This document shows positions 8,389 to 42,632 of a DNA stretch of 64,000 nt, piece after piece. Under the pieces are notes generated by a model, which ran no database searches, was not told the DNA's origin, and worked only from the letters and a program-made list of their open reading frames with translations. Every line of letters starts with the position of its first letter. Position 1 is the stretch's first letter. The position numbers were made by a program, and so were the translations under genes. The stretch is from an uncultured Pseudomonadota bacterium (lineage in GTDB: Bacteria > BMS3Abin14): the NCBI GenBank assembly GCA_964454175.1, contig CAYVSA010000001.1, positions 9,993 to 73,992 of the forward strand, in the 5' to 3' direction.

Positions 8389-8528
8389 CCGTTAGCATAT
8401 TTCCTTAACTATTGCAATTGGTTTGCCGGTTATCTTTGACATTTCATCTGACCTTATTCTATATTCAGATGATTTACCGGCAAAGTTGCGTAATACAGGA
8501 AACTTTCTTCGATGCGGTGACCCGTTAT

Positions 8529-18677: not shown

Positions 18678-19322
18678 CTACTCGTTTGCAAGCTGGAATG
18701 CCAGACCCTCCAGGTCGATGGCAAAATCAACATTTCTCAGTATCGTTCCTGGCGGTACCTTGAGGGTAGCCGGAGTAAAGTTAAGTATGCCTTTTATGCC
18801 TGCATCAACAAGTTGATGGGCAACCTGGAAGGCGTTTTCCGGGTTTACCGCGATTATTCCTATCCTGATGCCCAACTCTTCCACAACGCGCCTCATCTTG
18901 TCCATGGAAAAGAGGGGGATATCCTTGAATGAACCCATCTCAACGAGTATGGGATCCTGCTCGAATATCGCCGCAATTTCAAATCCTCTCTTGGCCAGGG
19001 AATCGGTTCCGAGGAGTGCGAATCCCAGGTTTCCTGCTCCCACCAGAGCACAGCTCCAGGATCTGTCTATGCCGAGGGCCCTCTTGATATCCTCCTGAAG
19101 GTTCTCCACGTAGTACCCTACACCCCTGACCCCGAACTCGCCGAAATATGCAAAATCCTTCCTGATCTGAGCCGGGTTGGTCCCGCATTTTCGGGCAATG
19201 TCAGAGGAGGAAATGATCCTCTGTCCCGACTTCTGAACCTCCTCAAGGCACCTGTCGTAAAGGGAGAGGCGCCTTATAGTCGCTTCCGGGATCTTAACCC
19301 TGCTGACTTTTCTAAATACCAT
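18678..19322 (-). CDS. rex: Redox-sensing transcriptional repressor Rex
   Basis: The N-terminal wHTH 'IPEATIRRLSLYDRCLE' and the Rossmann NADH-binding 'ALVGAGNLGFAL' are present. Length is 214 aa. It overlaps the upstream cytochrome gene's end by 11 bp. Confidence 0.85.
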   Translation of the reverse strand: MVFRKVSRVKIPEATIRRLSLYDRCLEEVQKSGQRIISSSDIARKCGTNPAQIRKDFAYFGEFGVRGVGYYVENLQEDIKRALGIDRSWSCALVGAGNLGFALLGTDSLAKRGFEIAAIFEQDPILVEMGSFKDIPLFSMDKMRRVVEELGIRIGIIAVNPENAFQVAHQLVDAGIKGILNFTPATLKVPPGTILRNVDFAIDLEGLAFQLANE

Positions 19323-20676
19323 TTCTCACCTGCCTTGTAAGTTGCATAGCATTATCCAGGTCACTGCTGACTTTTTCCAGCACTTTCATAGTATAGCTGT
19401 AATTGTGGACCGGCACTCCGGCTTCGACAAAGGAGAGGTCGTTCCTGCTTTCAGACAGAAGCCTGCTGGCTTCATCCTTTCGATCTGATTGCGCCATGGA
19501 GGAGATGCCGGTATCGGCACTGCGAATCCTGGCCCGCACCGCGGCTATGGTTCTTGCCAGTTCATCACTCCAGGAAAGGAGCAGGTCCCCGCGACCAGTC
19601 TCATGGCAAAGTTCGCACCTTTTGCCGTCGGCCCTCATGCCGGGTTTGGCGGAATCGGTGCCGGACCCCTCCCTGGCGGCAGGTCCGTGACATGCCACGC
19701 ATTCTACTCCAGCGAGATACATTGGGGATGGTTCGGGCTCTACACCGGATATCCCTTCTCCGCCGTATAGCGACATGATGGCCCTGTGCCCGCCGCCATG
19801 ACAGAGGACGCAGCCGTTTTCAAGAACGACTCTCTGCTCCGGAAGCTGATGGCGTATAACGCTGTGGCATTCGCTGCACTCTACCTTGTGATCGGTTACG
19901 TGGCGTCTGTGAATGGTCTCGACGGATTCAGATGCTGTGACTTTGCCTGTCCTGCTGTGGCAGTCGGCGCAGTTCTCGTACAGGACATCGCCGCTTCCCT
20001 GGACAATGTCCAGGTGGCAGTAGCGGCAGTCTACTGATCTTTCCATAAAATCGGTGTGATCCAGCTTTCCGCCGGCATATTCCACAGGGTTTTCCGGCGG
20101 AGTGTGGCAAAGGGTACACGTGGCGGTGGGGGGATTGTTCTCGAACCCTTTGAAATGGCAAATAAAGCAGGCGCTTTCAGCAACGGTCATGTGATCTCCC
20201 ATGGCGATATGGGAGTGACACGTGGTACAGCGCAGTATCTTGCCACGGCTTAATTTCTGCATGTGGGGTTTGTGATCGAAAATAACGCCTTCCTTGTAAA
20301 CGACCTGACCCTCCAGCAGCCTGCCGGAATGGCATTCTGTCTGCAGGCAGTTAGCGTCCAGGACCTCTGCCCTGGTTCTTTCGCCATATGTGCGGGTGAA
20401 ATAGCTGCCGAGCTGCATAAAAGCGCGGAACCTGGGCATCAGGTGGCCGTCCTCATCAGGCCGGGTGTGGCACTGGACGCAGGGTACATTGTTGTGAGTC
20501 GATCCCTTCCAGTCTTGGTAATAGTGCTTCATGACGTGGCAGGTGTTGCCGCAAAATACCGCGGTTTCAGTCACCTTCAGAGTTGCCCACGTTGAGAAGA
20601 ACAGCAGCGCCAGGACAATGAGAAGAACTTCATAGAAGCGAAGCTTCCCGAGAAATTTAACTCCCCTCTCTTTCAT
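19312..20676 (-). CDS. NapC/NirT/NrfH-like membrane-anchored multiheme cytochrome c (about 12 CxxCH)
   Basis: There is an N-terminal TM helix, then 'CGNTCH' plus at least 10 further CxxCH motifs, including a CxxxCH variant. It is the last cytochrome gene of the operon. Confidence 0.8.
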   Translation of the reverse strand: MKERGVKFLGKLRFYEVLLIVLALLFFSTWATLKVTETAVFCGNTCHVMKHYYQDWKGSTHNNVPCVQCHTRPDEDGHLMPRFRAFMQLGSYFTRTYGERTRAEVLDANCLQTECHSGRLLEGQVVYKEGVIFDHKPHMQKLSRGKILRCTTCHSHIAMGDHMTVAESACFICHFKGFENNPPTATCTLCHTPPENPVEYAGGKLDHTDFMERSVDCRYCHLDIVQGSGDVLYENCADCHSRTGKVTASESVETIHRRHVTDHKVECSECHSVIRHQLPEQRVVLENGCVLCHGGGHRAIMSLYGGEGISGVEPEPSPMYLAGVECVACHGPAAREGSGTDSAKPGMRADGKRCELCHETGRGDLLLSWSDELARTIAAVRARIRSADTGISSMAQSDRKDEASRLLSESRNDLSFVEAGVPVHNYSYTMKVLEKVSSDLDNAMQLTRQVRNGI

Positions 20677-20880
20677 GACTGCCCTCTGACCGGGTCTTTA
20701 CAGGCTGGAATCTCGCTGTATAACAGGCCCGGTAAAGTCGAGATTGTGAATAACCCGACAGTTTGAGAAGATTAGCACAGGTCACCTTTGGTGTCAATTA
20801 ACATGCGGGTTTCACTAACATCGTGCCAGCAATATTAACCCCATACAGGCAAAGTTTAAGATACATCTGGGTACAAGTCC

Positions 20881-21750
20881 TCATCGGATCTCCATGAGGG
20901 CAGAGTAGATGATAAAGAGGACCATGGTCAGCCCGAGACCATAGGCCGCAAAACCTGCGATCCGTGACCAGATAACGGTGGTTCGGGTTGGCGGATCTGT
21001 TGTCAGATCTTCCAGTTTGCCCGCTTCAACAAGCCTTCTGTACTCTGCGGGTCTTTCGTGGACCAGTTCTTCCTCGGTTATCCTGCCCGTGAAGATGACA
21101 TTGTCCAGGGGGAACTTCTCGGGGCGAAGGTGGGTATTGAAAAAATGTACCGTGAATATGAAGCCTGCCGCCAGCAGTGCCTCATCGGAATGCAATATAA
21201 TAGAGACGTTAAAAGCCCAGCCAGGAAGGAACTTTGAGAAGAACTCCGGGAACCATAGAGTCAGCCCTGAAAAACCGATTATCCCGACACCCCAGAAGAC
21301 AGCGAGGTAGTCAAATTTCTCCCAGTATGTGAACCTGTCAAAATCAGGCCTGCTGCCCTTGCCGAGGAACCACCTGAAATGCCCGATGATATCTTCAAGA
21401 TCTTTTTTCCAGGGCATCATGGAATTAGGCCCTGTCAGGAAGGCAAAGAAGGGCTCCTCCCGAAGGCAGACAATATAATAGGCTGCCCATGCGAGGTGCA
21501 GCGTGAAGTAAACGAATGTAATGAAGCCGCAGACGCGGTGGATATAACCTGCAGTCTGGATGCCGCCCAGAAAAAGCGCAAAGGTCCTGGCCCAGGCAGC
21601 CTCACTGTACTTTAAGGGCATGCCGGTCAGGACCAGACCCATGAAACTGATGATTATCAGGGCGTGCAGAAATCGGTGGTAGTATTGGAACCGGAGGTAG
21701 TAAATGGGGTTTTTCTCCCCGTTCCGGAGGTCGTTTGCATAATTTATCAT
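20881..21750 (-). CDS. Membrane b-type cytochrome (Ni/Fe-hydrogenase or formate dehydrogenase gamma / PhsC-like di-haem b subunit)
   Basis: It has 5-6 TM helices with conserved His pairs in the TM segments (HRFLHAL, IHRV, HLAW, HFFNTH). It is flanked by the two multiheme c genes. Confidence 0.55.
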   Translation of the reverse strand: MINYANDLRNGEKNPIYYLRFQYYHRFLHALIIISFMGLVLTGMPLKYSEAAWARTFALFLGGIQTAGYIHRVCGFITFVYFTLHLAWAAYYIVCLREEPFFAFLTGPNSMMPWKKDLEDIIGHFRWFLGKGSRPDFDRFTYWEKFDYLAVFWGVGIIGFSGLTLWFPEFFSKFLPGWAFNVSIILHSDEALLAAGFIFTVHFFNTHLRPEKFPLDNVIFTGRITEEELVHERPAEYRRLVEAGKLEDLTTDPPTRTTVIWSRIAGFAAYGLGLTMVLFIIYSALMEIR

Positions 21751-21770
21751 TTCGTCCTCCCGCCTGTATT

Positions 21771-22967
21771 TCAGTTCAAATTATCTTTTTTCCTCTCTTC
21801 GATGTGCCCCCTCACCAGCCACAGTGCTGTGTGGATACCGAAGAATATGAATACCCCGGAGAGCAGGAGCACCATTGCCAGGTAGAGGTAATAGAGTCCG
21901 GGATAATTTTCCTTGTCGTGGTAATCGGCATGCGGAAGGTATTTGACGAAGTTGGCGTTGGCCCCAGGGTGGCAAACCCCGCAGGTTTTGACCAGGTTGC
22001 CGGGATGGACCATTGATTCATTGTCATCCCTTGGCAGGATGTTGTGAGCTCCGTGGCAGTCTGGACATTGGGCGGCTTTCGAATACCCCATGCCCGTCAC
22101 CTGCCCGTGGTAGGTGTTCTTGAAGGTGTCACTCTCCTTTTCGTGACAGCCTGAGCACCGCCTGGTCACTGTAAGCATAAAATCCTTGTCCATGGCACGG
22201 TCTACCTTGTGAGCACCGTGACAGGAGATACAGGTTGGTGCCTCCTGGCTGCCCTCGGTGAACGCACTGCCATGGACACTGGAATTGTAAACGTTCACTA
22301 TGCCGGCGTGGCACGAACTGCAGGTGGTATTGATCCTGTTTCTGTGGGTCATTGCCCTCTCATCGTCTGCGGAATAGATGTTGTGGCTGCCGTGGCAGTC
22401 ATTGCATACGGCCGAAAAGATCATGCCGCTCCTGAAAAGAACGATGCCGTGCATGCCCTCCTCGAAATCGGAGCACACGTCAGATCTGAGAGCAGGATGT
22501 CTTTCGAGGATCTCAGGGCTGTCGTGACAGGTGCAGCATGTTGCCGGCAAGTTCAGCTCATAGGCTCTGGATTGGACGTTGCTGGTTGGCAAAATGTCGT
22601 GCTTGCCGTGGCAGCTGGAGCAGACCGGCAGGTCCGTCCGGGTCCGCGCATTCCCTGGCGAGTGGTCGCTTACCCTGAATTTGGCGACCATGTCGTCATG
22701 GCAGCGGCCGCAGTCTACAGCTTCCACTTCCTCATCGTGTTCATCTTCAGCGTCTTCCAGTTGAACATGACAGTCTGTACAGTCCAGGTCCCCGTGTATC
22801 GATCGGGAGAAGACATCCTCATCTATAAACAGAGAAAGCTCCTCCCCATCTACTTCTTTTGTGAGTGTGTCATCAGAATGACAGTCGAAGCAATCTGAGG
22901 TGGTCAGGGCCTGGGCCGGAGCGTAAAGAAGAAGTATGGCCACCGACAGAATAAACGCATATCTCAT
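21771..22967 (-). CDS. Periplasmic multiheme cytochrome c (11 CxxCH) with a C-terminal TM anchor
   Basis: It has a Sec signal peptide and 11 CxxCH motifs, and ends in 'LYYLYLAMVLLLSGVFIFFGIHTALWLV'. It is the first gene of the operon. Confidence 0.8.
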   Translation of the reverse strand: MRYAFILSVAILLLYAPAQALTTSDCFDCHSDDTLTKEVDGEELSLFIDEDVFSRSIHGDLDCTDCHVQLEDAEDEHDEEVEAVDCGRCHDDMVAKFRVSDHSPGNARTRTDLPVCSSCHGKHDILPTSNVQSRAYELNLPATCCTCHDSPEILERHPALRSDVCSDFEEGMHGIVLFRSGMIFSAVCNDCHGSHNIYSADDERAMTHRNRINTTCSSCHAGIVNVYNSSVHGSAFTEGSQEAPTCISCHGAHKVDRAMDKDFMLTVTRRCSGCHEKESDTFKNTYHGQVTGMGYSKAAQCPDCHGAHNILPRDDNESMVHPGNLVKTCGVCHPGANANFVKYLPHADYHDKENYPGLYYLYLAMVLLLSGVFIFFGIHTALWLVRGHIEERKKDNLN

Positions 22968-30980: not shown

Positions 30981-33652
30981 TGGTCAAGATCGAAATTGAC
31001 GGCCGTCAAGTTACTGTTAACGGCCACATCACCGTGCTGGAGGCTGCGAGCAAGCTCGGTATCTACATACCGACCTTCTGCCACCATCCAAGGCTCTCGG
31101 AGCTCGGCGCCTGCAGGATGTGCCTCGTGGAAGTGGAGGGCATGGGTAAACTGCAGACGGCCTGTACGCTTGCAGTTGCAGAGGGAATGGTGATCAGGAC
31201 CAGCACTGACAGGGTGGAAAAATCCCGCCGCGCCATGCTCGAATTCCTGTTGATCAACCATCCACTGGAATGCACTGTGTGCGACGCTTCGGGAGAATGC
31301 ACCCTCCAGGACTTCGCTTTCAAGTTCGGCAGCGCCGAGACGAGGTTCACCGAGAAAAAGAGGGTATTGCGCGACCATATCATAAGCCCCCTCATCGACA
31401 GGAATCTGAACAGGTGCATCCAGTGCAAGCGGTGCGTTAGAATTTGTGACGAAGTTCAGGGCGTCACTGCCCTGGGTATGTCCTACCGCGGGGCAAAGAC
31501 TGTGGTGGGGCCATTTATGGAAAAATCACTGGACTGCGAATACTGCGGCCACTGCATATGGGCCTGCCCGGTGGGTGCCATCACTTCGCGGGTTATGAGA
31601 CACAAGATCCGCACGTGGGAGATGGACAAGGCTGAGGCTATATGCGCGTTCTGCAGCTGCGGCTGCACGCTCACATACAATCACAGGGACAACAGGGTCT
31701 ACAAGGTCACCCACGCTGACGGCAGGGGTGTTAATCAGGGCAGTCTCTGCTCGAGGGGTTATTTCGGATATGATGTGATAAACAGCCCGGAAAGGCTAAC
31801 GACACCACTTGTCCGAAAAGATGGTGAACTGGTTCAGGCAACATGGGAGGAGGCCCTTGAGACCGTTGCATCCGCGCTGGGCAAAGCTGCCGGTGAGGGC
31901 GGTGAAAACGCGGTGGGAGGCATCGTATCAGCTCGGCTTACAAACGAGGAACTATATCTGTTTCAGAAGCTGATGAGATCCTGCCTGTCCAGCAACTGTG
32001 TTGATGTGACCACCGGAGAGTGGAACAGAACAGTCCTTCCAGTACTTGAGGAAAGGCTGGGTGTCTTTGCTGCCACCAACTCCTTAGACGAGGTCACCTA
32101 TGCTGACTCCCTCATCATAATCGGCTGCGACATTACGGTGGAAAACCCCATAACTGGTATAAAGGTGAAGTCGGCCATCCACAGAGGGGGGTCGGTTTCC
32201 GAGATCAACCCCAGGAAAACAGCCCTGTCCCGCATGACAAAGAGGACCATGCTGGTTAGGCCCGGCAACGAACTTACCCTGGTTAAGGGCTTGATCAGGG
32301 CGGTCTTTGACGAGGATCTGATCAGCCAGGAGGACGGGAGCACCTGCAGCAACCTGGATGAACTCAGGCTGTCGGTATTAGACCAGGACCTGAAGTCGAT
32401 CTCCGATGAAACAGGAGTGTCTCAGGAAGACATCACAGGCCTTGCCAGGGAGTTCATGGGGGCGCGCAGGGCGTCCATAATATTCGGTGAGTCTGCTGTC
32501 ATGACTGAGCAGGGTCCGGCTCTTATCAATGCACTTATCGACCTGCTCATGCTCACCGGGAAATTGGGTCAGGAGGGTTTCGGCCTGTATCCCGTAAACG
32601 GTACAGCCAATTTTCAGGGAGCAGTGGACATGGGGGTCGCGCCGGCTCACCTGCCTGGCCACGCCCCCCTTGCTGTAAAGGGCTCGGCTAAAATGCTGGC
32701 CGACGCATGGAAGTCCTCTATCCCGGAAGGCCAGGGTCTTTCGGCTCCACAGATGCTTAAGGCTGCAGTGGAAGGTTCCCTGAAAACGCTCTATGTAGTG
32801 GGTGTAGACATAACCGGTTCTTTCCCCGACAGTTCGATCGCAGAAAAGGCCCTGTCTAACCTGGATTTCCTTGTTGTGCAGGACCTTTTCCTCACGGATA
32901 CAGCAAGGGCGGCAGATGTTGTTCTGCCCGCTGGCAGCCTGGCTGAAAAAAACGGCACCCTTACCAACGTGGAAAGGCGAATCCAGAGAACACGCAGGGC
33001 CATCGACGGGCTGGGGAAGTCCATGCCTGACTGGAGGATCTTTTCTGAACTCGGCGTAGCCCTGGGCCATATGGAAATGAAATATGTGAATGCTGCAGAG
33101 GTGCTGGACGAGATCGCGCAGACCGTGCCCTACTACTCCGGCATCAACCATCGAATACTGGCAGATAATGGGCTCCAGTGGCCCTTCACCCAGGATGACG
33201 CCAGGGAAGTTTACCATGAAGGTTATCTCGGGACCCGCCACCTCCTTTCAGGAGGAGTCGCTGACAGTCTCAGGTCATTTGCAGCCGTGAAATCCTGGGG
33301 CAAAGTGCCAGCGAACGCCGATTATCCCTATACCCTGGTCACAGGAGATCTCCTGTCCCATTCGGGCACCTTCACGCGCTACTCTGAATCGTTGAACAAG
33401 ATAGACTCTGAAGGTGCTGTCGTTATGAATCCGGAAACCGGGGCCAGCCTGGGCATAGATGATGGAGGAAAAGCCAGGGTTGTTTCGGCCCATGGTGAAC
33501 TAACTGTAAAGACCATTTATTCAGAAGACCTCATGGAGGATATTTTCTTCCTTCCGAAACATTTTGCCGACGTACCTGCAGGCAGGTTGATGAGTGCGTC
33601 GGGAAACGGCAGCGAGACTGCTGTTGTGCAGGTACGCGTGGAAAGAGCGTGA
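30977..33652 (+). CDS. nuoG: NADH-quinone oxidoreductase subunit G (long form, Mo-free molybdopterin-oxidoreductase fold)
   Basis: The N-terminal 2Fe-2S 'CHHPRLSELGACRMC', the clusters 'HPLECTVCDASGEC' and 'CIQCKRCVRICDE', and 'CAFCSCGCT' are present. There is no Cys/Sec or His at the FDH active-site position. Confidence 0.9.
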   Translation: MMVKIEIDGRQVTVNGHITVLEAASKLGIYIPTFCHHPRLSELGACRMCLVEVEGMGKLQTACTLAVAEGMVIRTSTDRVEKSRRAMLEFLLINHPLECTVCDASGECTLQDFAFKFGSAETRFTEKKRVLRDHIISPLIDRNLNRCIQCKRCVRICDEVQGVTALGMSYRGAKTVVGPFMEKSLDCEYCGHCIWACPVGAITSRVMRHKIRTWEMDKAEAICAFCSCGCTLTYNHRDNRVYKVTHADGRGVNQGSLCSRGYFGYDVINSPERLTTPLVRKDGELVQATWEEALETVASALGKAAGEGGENAVGGIVSARLTNEELYLFQKLMRSCLSSNCVDVTTGEWNRTVLPVLEERLGVFAATNSLDEVTYADSLIIIGCDITVENPITGIKVKSAIHRGGSVSEINPRKTALSRMTKRTMLVRPGNELTLVKGLIRAVFDEDLISQEDGSTCSNLDELRLSVLDQDLKSISDETGVSQEDITGLAREFMGARRASIIFGESAVMTEQGPALINALIDLLMLTGKLGQEGFGLYPVNGTANFQGAVDMGVAPAHLPGHAPLAVKGSAKMLADAWKSSIPEGQGLSAPQMLKAAVEGSLKTLYVVGVDITGSFPDSSIAEKALSNLDFLVVQDLFLTDTARAADVVLPAGSLAEKNGTLTNVERRIQRTRRAIDGLGKSMPDWRIFSELGVALGHMEMKYVNAAEVLDEIAQTVPYYSGINHRILADNGLQWPFTQDDAREVYHEGYLGTRHLLSGGVADSLRSFAAVKSWGKVPANADYPYTLVTGDLLSHSGTFTRYSESLNKIDSEGAVVMNPETGASLGIDDGGKARVVSAHGELTVKTIYSEDLMEDIFFLPKHFADVPAGRLMSASGNGSETAVVQVRVERA

Positions 33653-33665
33653 GGAGGTATAGACG

Positions 33666-34133
33666 ATGATCGATATCAGCCAGCTCAAGGCAATATCCTC
33701 CCTTGAAGGAGTGTCAGAGGACGCACTGTCGGAATTGGCCAGGGTAATGCAGAAGAGGGTCTACAAAGACTCTGACCCTATTTTTAACGAGAACACCGAA
33801 GGCGGTGACCTTTATCTCGTGGGCGAGGGATCCGTGAAGTTGGAGAAAAGGGCAAAAGAGGGAGAGGCCCAGAGCCTGTCAGTGGTTCGTGCCGGCGATT
33901 TCCTCGGGATAATGACCTTCCTTGTGGGCGGCAAGCACTCTGCAAGCGCCGTGGCCCATGACGACTGCACACTTTACGTCCTGGACAAGGCCTCTTTTGA
34001 TGCTTTCGTTGAAAAGTTCCCGGCCGATGCCAACAGCATCTTCATGATATTTATAGAACGGCTCATCGAATCAGTCAGAAGCATGTATGAGCGGTACATC
34101 GATATGGTCAACTACATGTGGAGGTGGCGGTGA
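33666..34133 (+). CDS. Standalone cyclic nucleotide-binding (CAP effector-like) domain protein
   Basis: 'LYLVGEGSVKLEK...VVRAGDFLGIMTFLVGGKHSASAVAHDDCTLYVLDKASF' is a cNMP-binding beta-barrel. There is no DNA-binding HTH. Its stop overlaps the next start by 16 nt. Confidence 0.6.
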   Translation: MIDISQLKAISSLEGVSEDALSELARVMQKRVYKDSDPIFNENTEGGDLYLVGEGSVKLEKRAKEGEAQSLSVVRAGDFLGIMTFLVGGKHSASAVAHDDCTLYVLDKASFDAFVEKFPADANSIFMIFIERLIESVRSMYERYIDMVNYMWRWR

Positions 34134-34651
34134 ACCCTGAGGAAATTGAGGGATACGAGGAAGAAGAAGAGCTCGATCTTTCTCCCGTCAATGACATACT
34201 GAGTGACCTGGGCGACGCGAAGGGGATGCTGATCCCGCTTCTGCAGGAAGTCCAGAAGGTTTTCGGGTATGTACCTGAAGACGCCGCCAATATGGTTGCC
34301 GATGGGCTGGGCCTTTACCGCAGCCAGGTCTATGGTGTTCTGACATTTTATACGCAGTTCCACCTGAGCCCCAGGGGACGGCATATCATACGCGCATGTT
34401 CCGGGACTGCCTGCCACGTCAGGGGCGGTAAGAGCGTTATTGCCAGGCTGGAGAATCTCCTGGAGATCGAACATGGAGAGACCACAGAAGACGGGCTTGC
34501 TTCCTTTGAAAAAGTTGCCTGCCTCGGGGCGTGCGGTCTCGCCCCGGTGATCATGATAGACAACGATGCCTTCGGACAGGTGGATCCAACAAAGACCGAG
34601 CGGATAATCGAGAACCTGCGCGAGGTGTCCGGCACACAGAAAAGTGATTGA
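34118..34651 (+). CDS. Second NuoE/HoxE/FdsG-like 2Fe-2S subunit
   Basis: The ligands 'CSGTACHVRGG...CLGACGLAPV' are present. It has an acidic N-terminal extension. Confidence 0.85.
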   Translation: MEVAVNPEEIEGYEEEEELDLSPVNDILSDLGDAKGMLIPLLQEVQKVFGYVPEDAANMVADGLGLYRSQVYGVLTFYTQFHLSPRGRHIIRACSGTACHVRGGKSVIARLENLLEIEHGETTEDGLASFEKVACLGACGLAPVIMIDNDAFGQVDPTKTERIIENLREVSGTQKSD

Positions 34652-34681
34652 TCGGCCGTAACAGGGAGGGCCGAAAGAGAT

Positions 34682-37600
34682 ATGTCTAAAAGTTCAAACG
34701 ATAAACTGATCGTACTGGGAATGGGCACATGCGGCCTGGCTTCCGGCGCGCGTGGAGTCCTCTCCCAGGTTGAAGAGGAACTTACCAGCCTCAAGCTGGA
34801 TGTGCCTATCCTTAAGACCGGCTGCATAGGGATGTGCTACCAGGAGGTTCTCCTGGACGTGTCACTCCCTGGCCGTACCAGGGTCACCTACGCCAAAGTT
34901 CAGCCCGAGATGGTCTCAAAGATCATTGAAAGCCATGTCGTAAAGGGAAAACCCGTAAACGATTACGCCATCGGGCAGATACAGCAGAACGGTGAAAAGG
35001 CGTATAAGGGCATCCCGACTTACGACGAGATGGATTTCTTCGCGAAGCAAAAGCGGATCGTTCTTCGGCGCTGTGGATTCATCGACCCTGACAAGATCGA
35101 GGATTACCTTGACACAGATGGTTACAAGGCCGCGGAAAAGGCCCTGACAACGCTATCGCCGACCGTGATCAGGGAGATCGTCAAGAAGGCTGGCCTGAGG
35201 GGCCGCGGCGGAGGCGGATTCCCCACCGGTCTCAAGTGGGAGTTCTGCGCCACGGCGGCAGGGGAACCGAAGTACCTCATCTGTAACGCGGATGAGGGTG
35301 ATCCGGGCGCCTTTATGGACAGGAGCGTTCTGGAAGGTGACCCGCACGCGCTGCTGGAGGGAATGATCATTGCGGCCTATGCTATCGGCGCAGAATACGG
35401 CTATATTTACTGCCGCGCAGAGTATCCCCTGGCGATCGAGAGACTGGGAACCGCTATTGCCCGGGCCGAGGAAAAAGGATTCCTGGGAAAGAATATATTC
35501 GGTACTGACTTTTCCTTTACCCTCAGGATCAAGGAGGGCGCCGGAGCTTTCGTCTGCGGCGAGGAAACTGCTCTCATGGCGTCCATCGAGGGTAAACGGG
35601 GCATGCCCCGATCGAGACCGCCTTTCCCTGCTCATAAAGGTCTCTGGGGTAAACCTTCCAACATCAACAACGTCGAGACTTTTGCCTGTGTCGCCCCCAT
35701 CATCCTTGGAGGCGCTGACAGTTATTCCTCGATCGGGACCGAAGGCACCAAGGGCACGAAAGTTTTCGCCCTTACCGGAAAGATCAATAACACGGGGCTG
35801 ATCGAGGTCCCCGCCGGTACCCAGCTAAAGGAGATAATTTACGATATCGGGGGCGGTATTGTTGGTGGAGGCAAGTTCAAAGCCGCCCAGCTCGGGGGCC
35901 CTTCAGGAGGCTGCCTGCCCGCCGAGATCGTTGAAACACCCATCGATTACGATTCACTGATCGAAGCCGGAGCCATGATGGGTTCGGGCGGCGTAGTTAT
36001 AATGGACGAGCGGACTTGCATGGTGGACGTTGCCAGGTTCTTTTTGAACTTCACAACTTCCGAGTCCTGCGGGAAATGTGTGCCCTGCCGCCTTGGGACC
36101 AAGACAATGCTCAGCATCCTGGAGCGTATCACCGCTGGCAAAGGTACCATGCAGGACCTTGTCAACCTGGAGGAGATGGGTGCACAGATAAAGACTACTT
36201 CCCTGTGCGGTCTGGGACAGACTGCCCCGAACCCGGTACTTTCCACCATCAGGTACTTCAGACACGAGTACGAGGCCCACATATTAAACAAGAGATGCCC
36301 CGCGGTAGTTTGCAAGGAGGTCATCTCATCACCGTGCCAGCATGTATGCCCTATCGAGACGGATGTTCCAGCATATGTAACCCTTATCGGGCAGGGGAAA
36401 TTCACGGCCGCTCTTGATCTCATCCGCATGACCAATCCCCTCCCGGCTGTCTGCGGCAGGGTCTGCCATCATCCGTGCGAAAGCAAGTGCAGACGCGGAG
36501 AACTGGACAGGCCTATCAGCATCAGAAACCTCAAGAGGGTAGCCTCCGATAACGCTGCCGCCGATGCTGCCACCGGAAAGTACCAGATCAAGTCAAAGAA
36601 GATCTCCGGCAAGGGAAAGAAGGTCGCTATCATCGGGGGCGGGCCTTCCGGTCTCACGGCAGCCCACTTCCTCGCACTCAAGGATTTTTCCCCTGTCATT
36701 TTCGAAAAACAGAGGGTAGCGGGCGGCATGCTTATGCTGGGAATACCTGAGTACCGCCTGCCGAGACAGACACTGAACCATGAGATCAGGGCAATCGAAG
36801 ATATGGGTGTCCAGATCCATTACAGCACCCCGGTGGGCGAGGCTGTCTCCTTCGATCAGCTCAGGATGGATCATGAAGCTGTATTTATTGCATCCGGTGC
36901 CCACGTCGATCTCAAGATGGGCATACCAGGTGAGGATTCCGAAGGGGTGTATGAAAGCCTCAGCTTCCTCAGAAGGGTTAACCTGGGAGAAGAAGTGGCA
37001 CTGGGAAACAAGGTTGCAGTCGTTGGTGGAGGCAATACCGCCATTGACGCATCGAGGATCGCCAGGCGCCTGGGTGCTGACGTGACGATCCTCTACAGGA
37101 GAACGCAAAATGAAATGCCCGCTGATGACATGGAGATCCATGAGGCTCTCCTGGAGGGTATAGAGCTGGAAACGCTCGTGGCCCCGGTGAAGGTACTTTC
37201 GTCCGGCGGGAAAATGACTGGCGCCACCTGTATCAGGATGGAACTTGGCGAGCCTGATTCTTCCGGAAGACGAAGGCCGGTTCCCATAGAGGGGTCCGAG
37301 TTTGACATTCACCTCGACAACCTGATCGTTGCAGTTTCAGGCAAGCCCGACCTTTCATACCTCACCGACAAACACGGGATAGGACTTTCCAGGTGGGATA
37401 CGGTGGATGTTCACCCCTACACGCAGATGACCAACGTGGAAGGCGTGTTTGCCGGGGGCGACGTGGTTACAGGCCCATGGATGGTCATAGATGCAATTGC
37501 AGCCGGCAAGAGGGCGGCAGCACACATGGAGCTGTTCTTAAACGGGGAGGAAGTTGCCCCATTGTACGATGTCACAAAACCCAATATCTCGGGAATAGAG

Positions 37601-37765
37601 GCAATTGAGCTTACGGATGAGGACATGACCCTTACGAGGCCTGACATGCCCACACTCGAAGTTGTCAAGAGGTTAAAGGACTTCGCTGAGGTTGAACTGG
37701 GTTTTTCCAAAGAAGAGGCTATGAAAGAGGCCAGGCGCTGCCTGCGCTGTGACATTTCTGATTAA
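34682..37765 (+). CDS. Fusion protein: thioredoxin-like 2Fe-2S domain + NuoF/HoxF/FdsB-like FMN-NADH domain + GltD-like NAD(P)H/FAD domain
   Basis: The N-terminus 'GMGTCGLASGA...CIGMCYQ' precedes the NuoF core with 'GRGGGGFPTGLKW', 'ESCGKCVPCRLG' and 'CGLG'. After that comes 'CQHVCPIE...CGRVCHHPCESKC', then the Rossmann folds 'VAIIGGGPSGLTAA' and 'VAVVGGGNTAID', and a C-terminal 'RCLRCD'. Length is 1027 aa. Confidence 0.85.
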   Translation: MSKSSNDKLIVLGMGTCGLASGARGVLSQVEEELTSLKLDVPILKTGCIGMCYQEVLLDVSLPGRTRVTYAKVQPEMVSKIIESHVVKGKPVNDYAIGQIQQNGEKAYKGIPTYDEMDFFAKQKRIVLRRCGFIDPDKIEDYLDTDGYKAAEKALTTLSPTVIREIVKKAGLRGRGGGGFPTGLKWEFCATAAGEPKYLICNADEGDPGAFMDRSVLEGDPHALLEGMIIAAYAIGAEYGYIYCRAEYPLAIERLGTAIARAEEKGFLGKNIFGTDFSFTLRIKEGAGAFVCGEETALMASIEGKRGMPRSRPPFPAHKGLWGKPSNINNVETFACVAPIILGGADSYSSIGTEGTKGTKVFALTGKINNTGLIEVPAGTQLKEIIYDIGGGIVGGGKFKAAQLGGPSGGCLPAEIVETPIDYDSLIEAGAMMGSGGVVIMDERTCMVDVARFFLNFTTSESCGKCVPCRLGTKTMLSILERITAGKGTMQDLVNLEEMGAQIKTTSLCGLGQTAPNPVLSTIRYFRHEYEAHILNKRCPAVVCKEVISSPCQHVCPIETDVPAYVTLIGQGKFTAALDLIRMTNPLPAVCGRVCHHPCESKCRRGELDRPISIRNLKRVASDNAAADAATGKYQIKSKKISGKGKKVAIIGGGPSGLTAAHFLALKDFSPVIFEKQRVAGGMLMLGIPEYRLPRQTLNHEIRAIEDMGVQIHYSTPVGEAVSFDQLRMDHEAVFIASGAHVDLKMGIPGEDSEGVYESLSFLRRVNLGEEVALGNKVAVVGGGNTAIDASRIARRLGADVTILYRRTQNEMPADDMEIHEALLEGIELETLVAPVKVLSSGGKMTGATCIRMELGEPDSSGRRRPVPIEGSEFDIHLDNLIVAVSGKPDLSYLTDKHGIGLSRWDTVDVHPYTQMTNVEGVFAGGDVVTGPWMVIDAIAAGKRAAAHMELFLNGEEVAPLYDVTKPNISGIEAIELTDEDMTLTRPDMPTLEVVKRLKDFAEVELGFSKEEAMKEARRCLRCDISD

Positions 37766-37813
37766 CGGGAGCAGCCTGCGTTAAAGCAGTTAATGAGGAG
37801 TAGGGAAAAGAGC

Positions 37814-40597
37814 ATGTTCAACGTCATCGTAGACGGCAGACCGGTAAGCGTACCCAGGGGCTCAACGATCCTGGAGGCAGCCAGGAAACTGGAAATCGAA
37901 ATTCCGACTTTCTGCGACCACAAGCACCTGTTCCCATACGGATCGTGCCGTATGTGTGTTGTTGAGCTTGAGGGCTCAGACAGGCTGTTTGCCTCCTGTG
38001 TTACGCCGGTTACCGACAAGATGGAGATATATACTGACACTGCCAGGGTCAAGGCGGCAAGAGAGACTGTGCTTGAGCTTCTCCTGACCTATCATCCCCT
38101 GGAGTGTCCCGTGTGCCCTCAGTCGGGCCGCTGCATGCTGCAGGACATGACCTTTGAGCACGGGAAGGACAGCGGCAGGTTCGGCTCGGTGGGCGTTGAC
38201 AAGAGAATTGACTACCTCTCGCCTCTAATAGAGATGAACCAGAACAGGTGCATTCTCTGCGGAAGATGCGTGAGAATATGCGATGAGGTTCAGGGCGAGG
38301 GGGAGCTGGATTTTGTGAATCGCGGGTTCCCCACTGTGGTTGAACCGTCCTTTGAAAGGCCGATGGATTGTGAATTCTGCGGCCAGTGTGTACAGGCCTG
38401 CCCCGTGGGCTCGCTGTACAGCAGAATCTACAAGCACACGGCCCCATCGTGGGAACTGACTCCGGTAAGGACTACATGCCCCTTCTGCGGCGTAGGCTGC
38501 ACCCTCAATCTTGAGGTCAAGGGGGATCATATCTATCACGTACTGGGAGTGGATGACGAGGGCTCCAATAACGATGGGAACCTGTGCTGTAAAGGCAGGT
38601 TCGGATACGAATACGTCCATAGCCCAGAGAGAATAATGCAGCCAATGGTGCGCAAGGGCGAAGACCTCGAACCCGCAACGTGGGAAGAGGCCTACGATCG
38701 CATCAAAGAGGGCTTCGGCCGGATTCGTGACGAGCACGGACCGGATGCCCTTGGCGGTATAGCATCCGCAAGGTGCACTAACGAAGAAAATTATCTCTTC
38801 CAGAAGTTCATGAGAGCCGCGATAGGAACAAATAACATTGACTCTGTTGCCAGATTTGGCCACTTCCCCGGGATGGAGGCACTGCTAAAAGCTTTCGGCG
38901 TCGGGGCACCCACCAACTCCCTGGCAGACCTGGCACACACTGATCTGATTTTTGCCATCGATTCCAACATCACTGAAGACGACCATGTGGCGGGGTTGAA
39001 GGTTCTCAAACGGGTTCGCTACGGTGGGGCTCAGCTTATTGTTGCCAATAGCCGCAAGATCAAACTTACAAAATTTTCAGATGCCTGGATGAGGCACAGG
39101 CCCGGTTCCAGTGTGGCACTGTTAAATTCGATGGCGTGGGTTGTTCTGGAGGAGGGGCTGGAAGATGAGGAGTTCTGCCGCAAGAGGGTTGGCGGAATAG
39201 ATGATCTGAGAGCTTTTCTCAAAGACTACGCGCCTGAAAAGACGGCCGCCATTACTGGTGTGGCCGCAGAAGCAGTGCGGGAAGCCGCCAGGGCCATCGC
39301 TTCCTCCGCGAACGTCACCATACTGCTCACCCTCGGCGGTGCGAGCCCATACACCGGGGAAGACACCGTTGCAGCAGCAGCCAACCTCGCTCTCATTACC
39401 GGCAACGTTGGCCGCCAGGGCGCGGGGATAATTCCCTTGTCCGAGTACAACAATGTTCAGGGCTCCATGGATGTGGGGGCCCTCGCCCAGTTCCTGCCCG
39501 GTTACCAGAGCGTTACAGATAGCGGAATAAGATCCTGGTTCGAGGAGACCTGGGGAGTTGACCTGCCCGGGAAGCCTGGGCTTGAAGCTATGGAGATGTT
39601 TGCCGCGGCGAAAGAGGGAAAACTCCGCGGGCTGTACATAATGGGGGAGAACCCGCTCTCTGCATTCCCGGACAGGGAGTCGGTGATCGACGGTCTTTCA
39701 AGCCTGGACTTTCTTGTGGTTCAGGACATGTTCCTGACGCAGACAGCCCTCTTTGCCGACGTGGTATTGCCCACCTCTGGCGGGCCGGAAAAGAACGGTA
39801 CCTTCACCAACACCGATCGCAGGGTCCAGAGGGTGCGAAAGGCGATCAAGTCGCCGGGAGATACCAGGGACGACTGGAGGATCCTTACCGATCTCTCCGC
39901 GGCGATGGGGTATCCTGCCGAATATGCCGATGTTATGGAGATCACGGAAGAGATTGCAAGCGTGGTTCCTTTCTACGCCGGGATAACGCCTGAAAGGCTT
40001 GAGGGAAACGGCCTGCACTGGCCCTGTCCCAGGGAGGATCACCCCGGGACGGATTTTCTTCATGAGAACAGATTCCCTTCAGGGCTTGGCCGCACTCGCG
40101 CAATTGACGGCAGGCTCCAGAAGAAATCCTCTGCGAACTACCCTTTCCTGCTGGTGCCGGGCCTTCTCCTGTACCACTCCGGGACGACCACCACGAGAGC
40201 TAAAGGTCTCAACGAAGTTGCTCCTATCGCCCTTGCGGAGATAAACCCCGAAGACGCCCGGAAGCTGGACGTAAAATCCGGAGACTGGGTAAAGCTCACC
40301 AGTCTGAGAGGTATGGTGGACATAAAAGTTCTCGTCACGGATAAGACTATGGAAGGGACGATCTTCGCACCCACTCACTACCACGGCACACCTGTCAATG
40401 CCCTGCTGACTTACGACCACGTGAACGAGAATGCCGTCACAAGCGTCTCCGTGGAGAGGATCGAGAAGAGATTAGAAGATGAGAGAACAGAGCCGGTGGA
40501 AGGACAGGTAACCAGGCTGAAGAAGATCGTTAAGGATATACAGAAGAAGAGGCAAAGAGCCCACCATGGACAGGGCTCCGACGCCTCGGGAGGATGA
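37814..40597 (+). CDS. Second NuoG-like / degenerate formate-dehydrogenase-alpha-like subunit (FdsA/SfrA-like)
   Basis: The 2Fe-2S 'CDHKHLFPYGSCRMC', 'HPLECPVCPQSGRC', 'CILCGRCVRICDE' and 'CPFCGVGCT' are present. The motif 'VARFGHFPG' aligns with FdhF 'CARV-U-HGPS', with Gly at the Sec/Cys position but Arg and His kept. I place the start at the internal Met 'MFNVIVDG'. Confidence 0.8.
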   Translation: MFNVIVDGRPVSVPRGSTILEAARKLEIEIPTFCDHKHLFPYGSCRMCVVELEGSDRLFASCVTPVTDKMEIYTDTARVKAARETVLELLLTYHPLECPVCPQSGRCMLQDMTFEHGKDSGRFGSVGVDKRIDYLSPLIEMNQNRCILCGRCVRICDEVQGEGELDFVNRGFPTVVEPSFERPMDCEFCGQCVQACPVGSLYSRIYKHTAPSWELTPVRTTCPFCGVGCTLNLEVKGDHIYHVLGVDDEGSNNDGNLCCKGRFGYEYVHSPERIMQPMVRKGEDLEPATWEEAYDRIKEGFGRIRDEHGPDALGGIASARCTNEENYLFQKFMRAAIGTNNIDSVARFGHFPGMEALLKAFGVGAPTNSLADLAHTDLIFAIDSNITEDDHVAGLKVLKRVRYGGAQLIVANSRKIKLTKFSDAWMRHRPGSSVALLNSMAWVVLEEGLEDEEFCRKRVGGIDDLRAFLKDYAPEKTAAITGVAAEAVREAARAIASSANVTILLTLGGASPYTGEDTVAAAANLALITGNVGRQGAGIIPLSEYNNVQGSMDVGALAQFLPGYQSVTDSGIRSWFEETWGVDLPGKPGLEAMEMFAAAKEGKLRGLYIMGENPLSAFPDRESVIDGLSSLDFLVVQDMFLTQTALFADVVLPTSGGPEKNGTFTNTDRRVQRVRKAIKSPGDTRDDWRILTDLSAAMGYPAEYADVMEITEEIASVVPFYAGITPERLEGNGLHWPCPREDHPGTDFLHENRFPSGLGRTRAIDGRLQKKSSANYPFLLVPGLLLYHSGTTTTRAKGLNEVAPIALAEINPEDARKLDVKSGDWVKLTSLRGMVDIKVLVTDKTMEGTIFAPTHYHGTPVNALLTYDHVNENAVTSVSVERIEKRLEDERTEPVEGQVTRLKKIVKDIQKKRQRAHHGQGSDASGG

Positions 40598-40601
40598 TGA
40601 G

Positions 40602-41600
40602 ATGATCTGCCCGGAATGCAATCTGCTCATACCGGAGGACAGCCGGTTCTGCAAGGAGTGCGGCTATAAACTGGAGGCCAGTGTGGAGGAGCGTGATGCT
40701 CTCTCCAACCAGGAAAAGGCGGAGAAGCTTTACCGGGAGGGTATCGTCCAGTACCACCAGGGTCAGTTTGACGAGGCTATTTCACTTTGGGACGAGGCGG
40801 TTGGTCTTATTCCGGACTTTCAAATGACGAACTACTACCGGGGAGTGGCGTACTACGACAAGGGCATGCTGTCTGTTGCCATGGAGTGCTTTAAAAAATC
40901 TGAGGCTTCGCATCCCACCTCCTCTGCTGTCCACTACCGTCTTGGTCTGACTTATTATGCATTGGGGCTTTTAAGCGAATCTGAATACCACTTCAAGAAA
41001 GTGGAGGCACTGATACCCAATACCGCCCAGATCCACTACAGGCTGGGCCTTCTGTACCAGAAAAACGCGGCCCTGGACGAGGCCGTTTCAGAACTGCTGA
41101 AATCACTGGAATTTTCACCTGACTTTGCCAGAGCTTACTTCACACTCGGAGTGACTTATTTCCAGAAGGGAATGCTTGCCGAAGCAGCCGAGGCGCTGCG
41201 CAAAGTTGTGGATATTTCACCGAGATATGTCATGGCCTACTATCACCTGGGCATTGTGCTGTTTCACAAGGGCAACCTTCCCGAAGCCATCAAGGCATTT
41301 GACGAGGCGGTTCTGCTGTCCCCGAACTTCACGGCGGCCTACTACCACCTGGGAGTGTCCCACGCCAGGAAGGGTGCCCACGAAGATGCAGTGTCAAGCT
41401 TCATCAAGGTGAACGGTCTGGACCCCATGGATTCCTCAGCTCTCTACCACCTTGGGAACAGTTATGTGCATCTGGGGATGCTGGACAAGGCTGAAGATAC
41501 ACTGCAGGAGGCACTGAGGCTTAACCCCGACAACTCCGAGGCCTACTTCCTCCTTGAAAAGGTTGGAGAGATCAAGCGCTCCGGGGCGTTGGAGTACTAG
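40602..41600 (+). CDS. Zinc-ribbon + TPR-repeat protein
   Basis: The N-terminal 'CPECN...CKECGY' ribbon is followed by about 8 TPR repeats (AYYxLG/AxxxxxxAL periodicity). I place the start at 'MICPECN', after the upstream stop. Confidence 0.6.
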   Translation: MICPECNLLIPEDSRFCKECGYKLEASVEERDALSNQEKAEKLYREGIVQYHQGQFDEAISLWDEAVGLIPDFQMTNYYRGVAYYDKGMLSVAMECFKKSEASHPTSSAVHYRLGLTYYALGLLSESEYHFKKVEALIPNTAQIHYRLGLLYQKNAALDEAVSELLKSLEFSPDFARAYFTLGVTYFQKGMLAEAAEALRKVVDISPRYVMAYYHLGIVLFHKGNLPEAIKAFDEAVLLSPNFTAAYYHLGVSHARKGAHEDAVSSFIKVNGLDPMDSSALYHLGNSYVHLGMLDKAEDTLQEALRLNPDNSEAYFLLEKVGEIKRSGALEY

Positions 41601-41612
41601 GGGCAAAAAAAT

Positions 41613-42632
41613 ATGGATAACACAACCATGTACATACTTCTTTCTCTTTTCAAGATCGTTCTGGTCCTTGCCATAACGCTGACTTCGGTCCCGATAATGG
41701 TCTGGGTGGAGAGGAAGGTGTCCGGCCACATCCAGAACAGGCACGGACCGCTCTACGTTGGGCCCTTCGGGCTGCTGCAGCCCTTTGCCGACGTTGCCAA
41801 GCTGCTCCTTAAGGAAGACATTATACCCACCGAGGCGGACAAGGTGCTTTACGTTCTGTCGCCGCTCATGTCCTTTGTACCGGCGCTTCTGACTTTTGCG
41901 GTCATACCCATCGGGCCGCACCTGAACATAACAGACATCAACATCGGCATAGTCTACGTTCTGTCCGTTTCATCGCTGGGTGTATACGGGCTTGTTATGG
42001 CAGGGTGGTCGTCCAACAATAAATACGCCCTCCTGGGCGGTCTCAGGTCAGCGGCGCAGATGATAAGCTACGAGATAACCCTGGGGCTGTCCATTATAGG
42101 CGTTCTTATGTACTCCAGGTCACTTTCAATGGTCAGGATCGTGGAGATGCAGGCAGACACGTGGTTCGTCCTGCCCCAGTTCCTGGGATTCATTCTGTTT
42201 CTCGTGGCATCTTTTGCAGAGACCAACAGGCTGCCCTTTGACCTTCCGGAGGCGGAACAGGAGCTCATAGCGGGCTACCACGTCGAGTATTCCAGCCTCA
42301 AGTTCGCCCTGTTCTTCCTTGCCGAGTACGTTGCCATGCTCTCGGCTTCGTGTCTTATCGTCACCCTTTTCTGGGGGGGCTGGCTGCCGATCCCTTACAT
42401 CGGACCGCTGGTGGAGGGCCTCCTGCCGCAGGTTGTAGTAATGTACGTAATGCCTATCCTGTGGTTCCTGGTTAAGGTTGCTTTCTTCATGTTCTTCTTC
42501 GTGTGGGTTCGCTGGACCTTCCCCAGGCTGCGTTACGACCAGCTGATGTCACTCGGCTGGAAAGTGCTGCTTCCCCTGGCGGTATTAAACGTTTTCATCT
42601 CTGGCGTCATCAGGATGTCGGGAGTTATGTAG
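41613..42632 (+). CDS. nuoH: NADH-quinone oxidoreductase subunit H
   Basis: 'VWVERKVSGHIQNRHGP' and 'RLPFDLPEAEQELIAGYHVEYS' are present. Confidence 0.95.
   Translation: MDNTTMYILLSLFKIVLVLAITLTSVPIMVWVERKVSGHIQNRHGPLYVGPFGLLQPFADVAKLLLKEDIIPTEADKVLYVLSPLMSFVPALLTFAVIPIGPHLNITDINIGIVYVLSVSSLGVYGLVMAGWSSNNKYALLGGLRSAAQMISYEITLGLSIIGVLMYSRSLSMVRIVEMQADTWFVLPQFLGFILFLVASFAETNRLPFDLPEAEQELIAGYHVEYSSLKFALFFLAEYVAMLSASCLIVTLFWGGWLPIPYIGPLVEGLLPQVVVMYVMPILWFLVKVAFFMFFFVWVRWTFPRLRYDQLMSLGWKVLLPLAVLNVFISGVIRMSGVM

Follow-up and report, generated by a model that had tools for sequence, protein, structure and literature searches.

In a 64,000-nucleotide stretch of contig CAYVSA010000001.1 (assembly GCA_964454175.1; positions 9,993 to 73,992 of the forward strand, hereafter the window) from an uncultured Pseudomonadota bacterium, the operon for respiratory complex I carries, directly behind nuoG, a gene for a 155-residue protein that consists of a single cyclic nucleotide-binding (CNB) domain. 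The fold is a familiar one, but its conserved association with NADH-dehydrogenase modules has not been reported before. Its product appears to descend from a CRP/FNR regulator that has lost its DNA-binding domain, and its phosphate-binding cassette is both strongly conserved and non-canonical. Whether it serves as a CRP-derived accessory or regulatory partner of NuoE/F/G-type modules, the reading we put forward here, seems to us an evenly balanced question on the strength of the sequence comparisons detailed below.

The gene is genuine. Its product matches the Pfam profile PF00027 (cNMP_binding, for cyclic nucleoside monophosphates) over residues 31–117 and profile positions 2–88 of 89 (E 3.9e-19; 68.9 bits against a cutoff of 27.5), which places it in the CNB fold above the gathering score; beyond PF00027 no Pfam domain was detected in the protein, and a helix-turn-helix (HTH) domain, including HTH_Crp_2 and Crp, is absent. 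A search of 5.8 billion proteins returned homologues in 40 clusters at 54–100% identity, nearly all exactly 155 residues long and all from metagenome-assembled genomes (MAGs) or metagenomes. Their database labels are limited to 'cyclic nucleotide-binding domain-containing protein', 'CRP-like cAMP-binding protein' and 'cAMP receptor protein', the latter two of which are probably wrong names for these genes. Across nine orthologous loci, pairwise dN/dS for the gene is 0.05–0.24, with dS saturated. Given homologues of fixed length, these dN/dS values and a conserved Shine-Dalgarno (SD) sequence, the open reading frame (ORF) is a real gene, apparently translated and under strong purifying selection; a preliminary description of this DNA had left room for an ORF that is not translated, and all three lines of evidence speak against that. 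Together with a family of some 109 unique homologues of fixed length, they also rule out a spurious ORF or the pseudogene of a truncated CRP.

A structural model built with AlphaFold2 from the family alignment (predicted local distance difference test score 89.4) comprises a beta-roll and one long C-terminal helix (residues 119–153), with no HTH. Its top Foldseek matches (E ~1e-11 to 1e-12) are the effector domains of Corynebacterium glutamicum GlxR (4byy/4cyd), Mycobacterium tuberculosis CRP (3i54/3d0s) and Thermus thermophilus CRP (4ev0), which share the beta-roll and long C-helix at query TM-scores of 0.72–0.79, and the structural-genomics protein 3gyd (Mfla_1926), whose query TM-score of 0.80 exceeds all others. 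In sequence, the best full-length match is to 4ev0 and spans residues 16–136. Like 3gyd, the Brucella protein 5d1i and the N-terminal domain 2pqq are single CNB domains of similar size, with identities to the window protein of only ~21–23%; we know of no function for these three, nor of any genomic link between them and NADH dehydrogenases. The preliminary description of a standalone CAP-effector-like domain with no output domain is thus borne out by Pfam, by the model and by Foldseek alike.

The C-terminal tail points to the origin of the protein. Its C-helix ends in RYIDMVNYMW (residues 143–152, nt 34092–34121), which aligns with AFLDVTGRI, the hinge and helix D start of E. coli CRP, and the chain terminates 9 residues past the Asp of the hinge motif aligned with FLDV. 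CRP/FNR regulators and the window protein have the hinge motif [FY][LI]D[VLM] in common; within the family it takes the form [YF][IV]DM, and the full C-terminal motif reads [YF][IV]DM.x[YF][MV]. By this alignment the protein is a CRP/FNR regulator truncated just past its hinge, and not a PKA-type domain. Measured against the CRP/FNR architecture, the effector domain, the predicted long C-helix and the hinge are present and the winged HTH is absent, and for want of an HTH the protein is not a CRP/FNR transcription factor. CRP/FNR regulators are also free-standing genes, whereas the CNB gene lies inside respiratory or dehydrogenase operons. Neither is it a disguised core subunit: homology to NuoA–N was not found, PF00027 being the sole match and tblastn with the Nuo proteins of the window missing the gene.

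As delimited with a profile of diverse members, the family comprises 109 unique sequences of 153–159 residues, all from MAGs and metagenomes, with hydrothermal sulfide, cold seep and mangrove sediment as source environments. A metagenome scan with a broad alignment recovered only the window's clade, and the distant members (29–33% identity, with NuoD ~55% identical) were found by exhaustive profile search. Family members score at least 166 bits and the next matches, ~235-residue CRP/FNR regulators with an HTH (PF13545/PF00325), at most 104 bits, such that the family appears discrete and set apart from full-length regulators by both score and length. Besides the cassette and the tail, the beta4-beta5 flap stands out, with K61, E65, G66, Q69 and L71 each kept in at least 96 of the 109 members.

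In its phosphate-binding cassette the protein departs from cAMP and cGMP receptors. Canonically this element reads Gly-Glu ... Arg-[Ser/Thr]-Ala, in which Arg binds the cyclic phosphate and Glu the ribose 2'-OH. When the cassette of T. thermophilus CRP (FGEMSLLDEGERSASAVA) is aligned with that of the window (LGIMTFLVGGKHSASAVA), the latter reads G81-I82 ... H91-S92-A93, and against E. coli CRP Ile82 falls on Glu72 and His91-Ser92 on Arg82-Ser83. Within the window's clade G81, M83, T84, F85, G89 and H91 are invariant. Across the family the cassette Gly, Ser and Ala are retained and the Arg position is occupied by His in 107/109 members, while at the Glu position 58 members have Ile, 40 retain Glu and 11 carry another residue; it is Ile, Thr, Val or Met in 62/62 members of the window's subgroup, and the 40 members which keep Glu all belong to other subgroups. 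Both Glu and Arg are present in one distant member, P0253, the gene of which lies in a canonical nuo operon. Searched with PROSITE-type cNMP signatures, 0/109 members match, and the E. coli CRP control matches both. As the most conserved segment of the protein, the cassette has not degenerated through drift; nevertheless, with Arg replaced by His in 107/109 members and Glu by Ile in the window's clade, a canonical cAMP or cGMP sensor is unlikely. The preliminary description had implied sensing of cAMP or cGMP and had proposed an alignment of the cassette as a check for a degenerate domain: the domain passes as strongly conserved, yet it lacks both hallmark residues of cNMP binding, and the implied sensing is not supported. 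Outside the window, the full-length CRP/FNR regulators P0260–P0309 (~235 residues) likewise have His in place of Arg in the cassette (FGELALLDGAPHSAT); actinobacterial CRP/GlxR, which are nearest to them among solved structures, carry Arg.

The genomic setting of the family argues for a link to NADH dehydrogenases. The gene does lie inside a complex I operon, as the preliminary description held, with nuoA–G upstream and nuoH onward downstream. In the window's clade the order is nuoA–G, CNB, nuoE2, nuoF2::GltD, nuoG2, a tetratricopeptide repeat (TPR) gene and nuoH onward, where nuoE2, nuoF2 and nuoG2 denote a second set of genes of the nuoE, nuoF and nuoG type; this order is kept in 8/8 genomes representing species and in 13/13 loci from metagenomes, and the arrangement of the inserted module in 21/21 related loci, in each case as far as the contigs extend. 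The co-occurrence of the CNB gene with the second nuoE, which the preliminary description had suggested checking, holds in so far as nuoE2 directly follows it in 24/24 loci with downstream sequence (the window's clade and loci L013–L015, of which L013 is a short contig with CNB followed by a NuoE-like gene). The association is nonetheless wider, as relatives are found in canonical operons without a second E/F/G set, ordered nuoA–G, CNB, nuoH–N (L030, L031, L032 and, in part, L016). In L014, L035 and L015, by comparison, nuoE and nuoF are followed by a 1788-residue NuoG::NuoG2 fusion, CNB, nuoE2, a HydB-like nuoF2 and a second CNB paralogue, and in L015 the cluster continues into nuoJ–N. The fusion contains two complete domain sets (L014, 4618–9984; L035, 1794–7160) and hints, by Rosetta-stone logic, that the second module may dock on complex I. 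L033 (7645–13216) and L034 (4085–9656) harbor a soluble formate dehydrogenase cluster of folD, a nuoE-like gene, a hydB-like gene (619 residues), CNB (153 residues) and fdhA. In these two loci fdhA has an in-frame TGA at the catalytic ARV-U-H, which indicates a selenocysteine formate dehydrogenase mis-called as two genes. A partnership with the second nuoE alone is ruled out by the relatives in nuo operons without nuoE2 and in the soluble formate dehydrogenase cluster; the sole element common to all CNB contexts is a NuoE/NuoF/NuoG-type flavoprotein/Fe-S module, and conserved linkage to such genes in distant lineages fits a putative regulatory, accessory or assembly role. Our literature searches returned no description of a CNB protein in nuo operons, nor of the nuoE2/F2/G2 insertion. 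Equivalence to the 'NUO-2' of Nitrospina and Kuenenia (Lucker et al.) is ruled out, as its organisation differs and no CNB protein is mentioned.

Signals at both ends of the gene suggest that its translation is coupled to that of its neighbors (Table 1). At the 5' end the SD overlaps the nuoG stop codon (TGA, 33650–33652). At the 3' end, a GTG at 34130 overlaps the CNB stop codon as GTGA and is preceded by GGAGG 5 nt upstream. This junction, with an open NuoE2 frame from GTG 34130, is found in 18/18 complete loci of the window's clade, where NuoE2 opens V-S-A-D-V-T-L-E-D-V or, in the window's subclade, V-N-P-E, and the codons right after the GTG vary mainly at third positions, a coding signature. 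The 16-nt overlap given in the preliminary description applies only to the longest nuoE2 ORF, which begins at GTG 34118; because of the SD spacing, the open frame in 18/18 loci and the onset of third-position variation after GTG 34130, the functional overlap is most likely the 4-nt GTGA, which replaces the 16-nt junction while leaving the translational coupling itself intact. In 8/9 orthologous loci the CNB gene closes with an identical 18 nt (ATGTGGAGGTGGCGGTGA), both six-fold-degenerate Arg codons included, whereas Arg codons further upstream vary freely in the same nine loci. Conservation of the entire tail can thus be taken only partly as a protein-level signal: the last five codons, encoding MWRWR, are fixed by the downstream SD and start, and this sequence appears constrained at least partly at the nucleotide level, whereas the tail core upstream of them is conserved as amino acids with synonymous codon change, and is conserved also in lineages with a different downstream junction. 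At the CNB 3' ends of L030, L031 and L035, Arg-rich C-termini use AGG, AGA and GGAGG codons which at the same time form the SD for the gene that follows, and in several lineages such C-termini would therefore reflect a dual coding and regulatory constraint. A scan of the surroundings of the CNB gene against shuffled sequence found 2 promoter-like sites (8.7 expected) and 17 terminator-like sites (13.2 expected), and no promoter or terminator signal rises above shuffle expectation.

How might a severed effector domain act on a dehydrogenase? We envisage that a CRP/FNR regulator lost its DNA-binding domain and kept a beta-roll, a long C-helix of the dimerisation type and the hinge motif, and that the product would act in trans on the N-module of complex I and on related Bfu-type or formate dehydrogenase diaphorase modules. 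In the window, coupling to nuoG upstream and nuoE2 downstream would provide for its production at a fixed ratio with NuoE2, NuoF2::GltD and NuoG2. By analogy with CRP, the state of the pocket, with its conserved His-type cassette, would govern how C-helix and hinge are placed. In CRP itself the flap and the hinge-region tail contact the hinge and DNA-binding domain; here the flap (residues 61–71) and the C-terminal motif, the two surface elements with the highest conservation, may instead constitute a docking or output surface which contacts the partner in place of the HTH, and any ligand would be one other than canonically bound cAMP or cGMP. From the reality of the gene, its fold, the family boundaries, the unusual cassette, the neighborhood and the coupling signals we infer a physical association with the module, and with it a possible allosteric function and ligand. 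Small, lineage-specific, non-core subunits of the peripheral arm or N-module are familiar from complex I of T. thermophilus (Nqo15/Nqo16) and Paracoccus (homologues of NDUFS4/S6/A12). Those subunits are seen in structures, whereas the CNB association is drawn from gene order; none of them is a CNB fold or related to the CNB protein in sequence or fold.

Several observations weigh against such a partnership. The nearest full-length CRP/FNR regulators that we retrieved carry a His-type cassette (G-E...P-H-S-A-T) in 46 of 48 cases, albeit in a sample biased by retrieval through shared 5-residue words, and the cassette His may accordingly have been inherited from a CRP/FNR subgroup rather than adapted to the present role. 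Part of the tail conservation, namely MWRWR, is accounted for by the embedded nuoE2 SD and start and not by protein function. No fusion of the CNB domain to a Nuo subunit was found, gene order within operons can stay conserved without physical interaction, and every member of the family comes from an uncultured organism. A more elaborate version of the partnership, in which the protein is a ligand-gated accessory subunit of NuoEFG-type modules (of complex I, of 'double N-module' complex I and of soluble formate dehydrogenase diaphorases) whose docking replaces the DNA-binding output, must be regarded as rather doubtful. The His-type cassette would bind an effector other than a cNMP, for which haem (the CooA precedent), a flavin and a nicotinamide nucleotide are candidates; in the window's lineage, gating would control how electrons pass between two modules, the canonical N-module and the inserted NAD(P)H/ferredoxin module of Nfn/Bfu-like kind.

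Among rival explanations, a canonical second-messenger receptor, which binds cAMP or cGMP in the usual cassette and relays the signal to the respiratory module, would account for the significant Pfam match, for best sequence and fold matches in the Protein Data Bank (PDB) to cAMP/cGMP-binding proteins, for the retained cassette Gly, Ser and Ala, and for the members that keep Glu or, in P0253, both hallmark residues. Substitutions of Arg82 or Glu72 in CRP, however, abolish activation by cAMP, and it is these positions that are altered in 107/109 members and in 62/62 of the window's subgroup, respectively; with the PROSITE-type signatures matching CRP and none of the family, and no cyclase in the 64-kb window, we consider such a receptor improbable. 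If the pocket binds nothing, the protein could be a structural or assembly factor, a CNB scaffold, probably dimeric through its C-helix, that has no sensing role and helps to assemble, stabilise or tether NuoEFG-type modules; it might, for instance, keep the second module attached to complex I. Coupling signals that suggest fixed-ratio production with structural subunits, the position at the nuoG-nuoH boundary in canonical operons and the general precedent of lineage-specific accessory subunits such as Nqo15/Nqo16 are compatible with this proposal, as is the finding that many CRP/FNR members reach their active form ligand-free, the cavity being filled by salt bridges (PMC12937710). It falls short in explaining why the cassette should be the most conserved segment, with six clade-invariant positions and a His91 that is nearly invariant family-wide, since such conservation exceeds the needs of a scaffold unless the cassette is itself a contact surface; we hold a ligand-free role to be rather unlikely.

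Alternatively, the pocket may hold a cofactor, the cassette His ligating haem, another cofactor or a metal, so that the protein would sense gas or redox state on behalf of the NADH-dehydrogenase module. CooA exemplifies a CNB pocket re-used for a non-nucleotide ligand, and its His77 is the proximal haem ligand (PMC12937710); several further CRP/FNR members, HcpR and PgRsp included, are reported to bind haem. By hhalign, His77-Ser78 of CooA fall on His91-Ser92, with the cassette helix deleted in CooA, at a probability of only 19.6% and with a CooA sequence checked by its Pro2/Cys75/His77 numbering only; we take this alignment as no more than a lead. CooA differs further in possessing an HTH and an N-terminal Pro as second ligand; the family, by contrast, keeps the full cassette helix and offers no conserved second axial ligand, its N-terminus reading M-I-[DE] with no equivalent of Pro2 and no conserved Cys, and its His could equally contact phosphate. 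A CooA-type sensor is therefore hard to credit. A transcriptional decoy, in which an HTH-less paralogue inactivates a full-length CRP/FNR regulator by forming a heterodimer with it through the C-helix, such that nuo expression feeds back on the regulon, would be in keeping with nearest relatives that share the His-type cassette and with the retained hinge and predicted dimerisation helix. It is the least expected of these rivals, given a gene that keeps its place next to NuoE/F/G-type genes through at least four cluster architectures (the soluble formate dehydrogenase cluster included) and in distant lineages, a tight coupling to abundant respiratory subunits that would be unusual for a titrating factor, and the absence of any CRP/FNR-type gene from the window.

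Table 1. Features of the complex I operon and the CNB gene in the window (positions are those of the window; strand + throughout).
Feature	Position	Strand	Basis and remarks
nuoA	26572 (start)	+	Pfam / ORF list
nuoB	26955 (start)	+	Pfam / ORF list
nuoC	27510 (start)	+	Pfam / ORF list
nuoD	28026 (start)	+	Pfam / ORF list
nuoE	29201 (start)	+	Pfam / ORF list
nuoF	29685 (start)	+	Pfam / ORF list
nuoG, canonical 75-kDa-type, 891 aa	30977..33652	+	Pfam Fer2_4, NADH-G_4Fe-4S_3, Fer4_Nqo3, Molybdopterin, Molydop_binding
SD of CNB gene, GAGGAGG	33651..33657	+	Overlaps nuoG stop, 8 nt before ATG; TGAGGAGG kept in 9/9 orthologous loci
CNB gene, after nuoG stop	33666..34133	+	ATG start, 155 aa; CRP/FNR-type effector domain only (beta-roll and C-helix, without HTH)
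beta4-beta5 flap, residues 61-71 (KRAKEGEAQSL)	33846..33878	+	Nearly invariant; aligns with CRP flap residues 51-61
Non-canonical phosphate-binding cassette, residues 79-97 (FLGIMTFLVGGKHSASAVA)	33900..33956	+	Alignments to T. thermophilus CRP 4ev0 and E. coli CRP
Ile82 codon in place of canonical Glu	33909-33911	+	Cassette alignment
His91 codon in place of canonical Arg	33936-33938	+	Cassette alignment
Predicted long C-helix, residues 119-153	34020..34124	+	AlphaFold2 secondary structure
Coupling junction	34120..34133	+	SD GGAGG 34120-34124, nuoE2 GTG 34130-34132, CNB stop TGA 34131-34133
nuoE2, second NuoE/HydC-like [2Fe-2S] subunit, acidic N-terminal extension	34130..34651	+	Pfam 2Fe-2S_thioredx, E 1e-49; longest ORF from 34118
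nuoF2::GltD fusion, 1027 aa	34682..37765	+	N-half Bfu-type flavoprotein B-like; C-half GltD-like FAD/NAD(P)H domain
nuoG2, NuoG/FdsA-like	37793..40597	+	Pfam; best matches FdsA-type formate dehydrogenase alpha subunits
Zn-ribbon and TPR protein, closing the inserted module in the window's clade	40566..41600	+	Pfam TPR families; syntenic in all complete loci
nuoH, canonical operon resumes	41613..42632	+	ORF list, synteny

A second NuoE/NuoF::GltD/NuoG-like module and a Zn-ribbon/TPR protein take up positions 34130 to 41600, inside an otherwise complete complex I operon, where they are inserted between nuoG and nuoH. The N-half of F2 (residues 1–549) finds its best PDB matches in the Bfu-type B subunits 7t2r_B (1e-220), NfnB 9n5u_B (7e-215) and 8oh5_B, and the C-half (550–1025) matches the GltD-like part of NfnA/StnC-type subunits (9bov_A, 8oh5_C and NfnA 9n5u_A). 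The A, B and C subunits of Bfu-family, flavin-based electron-bifurcating enzymes (NfnABC 9n5u; HydABC-type 7t2r/7q4v; 8oh5) find their counterparts in NuoE2, the F2 N-half and the GltD-like C-half (E 1e-106 to 1e-220), a likeness that concerns the neighboring module and not the CNB protein; in the window, unlike in those enzymes, the GltD part forms one chain with the NuoF-like subunit, and a complex I operon houses the module. To our knowledge, no characterised enzyme of that set has a CNB-domain subunit. The fusion is not universal, as NuoF2 lacks the GltD-like C-terminal half in L026 (8789–12844), from the window's broader clade. Because the Mo-ligand Cys of nuoG2 is replaced by Gly (ARFGH against ARVCH in the FdsA-type chain 9wxb_B), its product is probably an electron-transfer subunit only, and a working formate dehydrogenase is unlikely. 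Overall, the insertion resembles an Nfn/Bfu-type module for NAD(P)H and ferredoxin, in rearranged form, within a complex I operon. For one member of the window's clade the annotated source is 'bacterium BMS3Abin14', and the candidate phylum of that name has been reported with genes of the tricarboxylic acid cycle in its reductive form (rTCA; PMC12400630), which would fit a need for reduced ferredoxin or NADPH.

Elsewhere in the window, we find only two genes related to cyclic di-GMP (c-di-GMP), one for a CBS-CBS-GGDEF diguanylate cyclase shortly after nuoN (49867–51507, +) and one for an MshEN-domain protein (4142–5200, -). The preliminary description had called the neighborhood rich in c-di-GMP components, which overstates two genes in 64 kb, neither of them adjacent, and a c-di-GMP link of the CNB protein is weak. 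A second CNB protein, like a nucleotide cyclase, is absent from the 64-kb window. Near the 5' end of the window, a molybdenum cofactor (Moco) riboswitch (RF01055, 63.5 bits; 4006–4123, -) falls within the 5' end of moaA as given by its longest ORF (2957–4120, -), the start of which is therefore over-called. A UPF0047 gene (8412–8924) is followed by one for a 647-residue GltD/SfrB-like protein (Fer4_20 and Pyr_redox_2; 8927–10870, +), a second NAD(P)H-flavoprotein of the type of the F2 C-half. At 18681–22967 (-), a Rex-like redox-sensing repressor (Put_DNA-bind_N and CoA_binding) adjoins two multihaem c-type cytochromes and a cytochrome b, and ATP synthase genes follow this region upstream of the nuo operon.

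Accounts of bacterial complex I usually name 14 core subunits, under transcriptional control. Were the CNB protein a passive scaffold only, the finding would amount to a modest refinement of annotation. If it is instead an accessory or regulatory subunit at the boundary of the N-module, it would be of a new type, in which the effector domain of a transcription factor has been re-used to act on an enzyme; and if the ligand-gated version were true, it would constitute direct small-molecule control of complex I input in bacteria. The CNB family also marks unusual respiratory clusters, in which a second, Bfu/Nfn-like NuoE2F2G2 module resides in the complex I operon, fused through NuoG in some lineages, and which are carried by little-known lineages akin to BMS3Abin14 that may be rTCA autotrophs.

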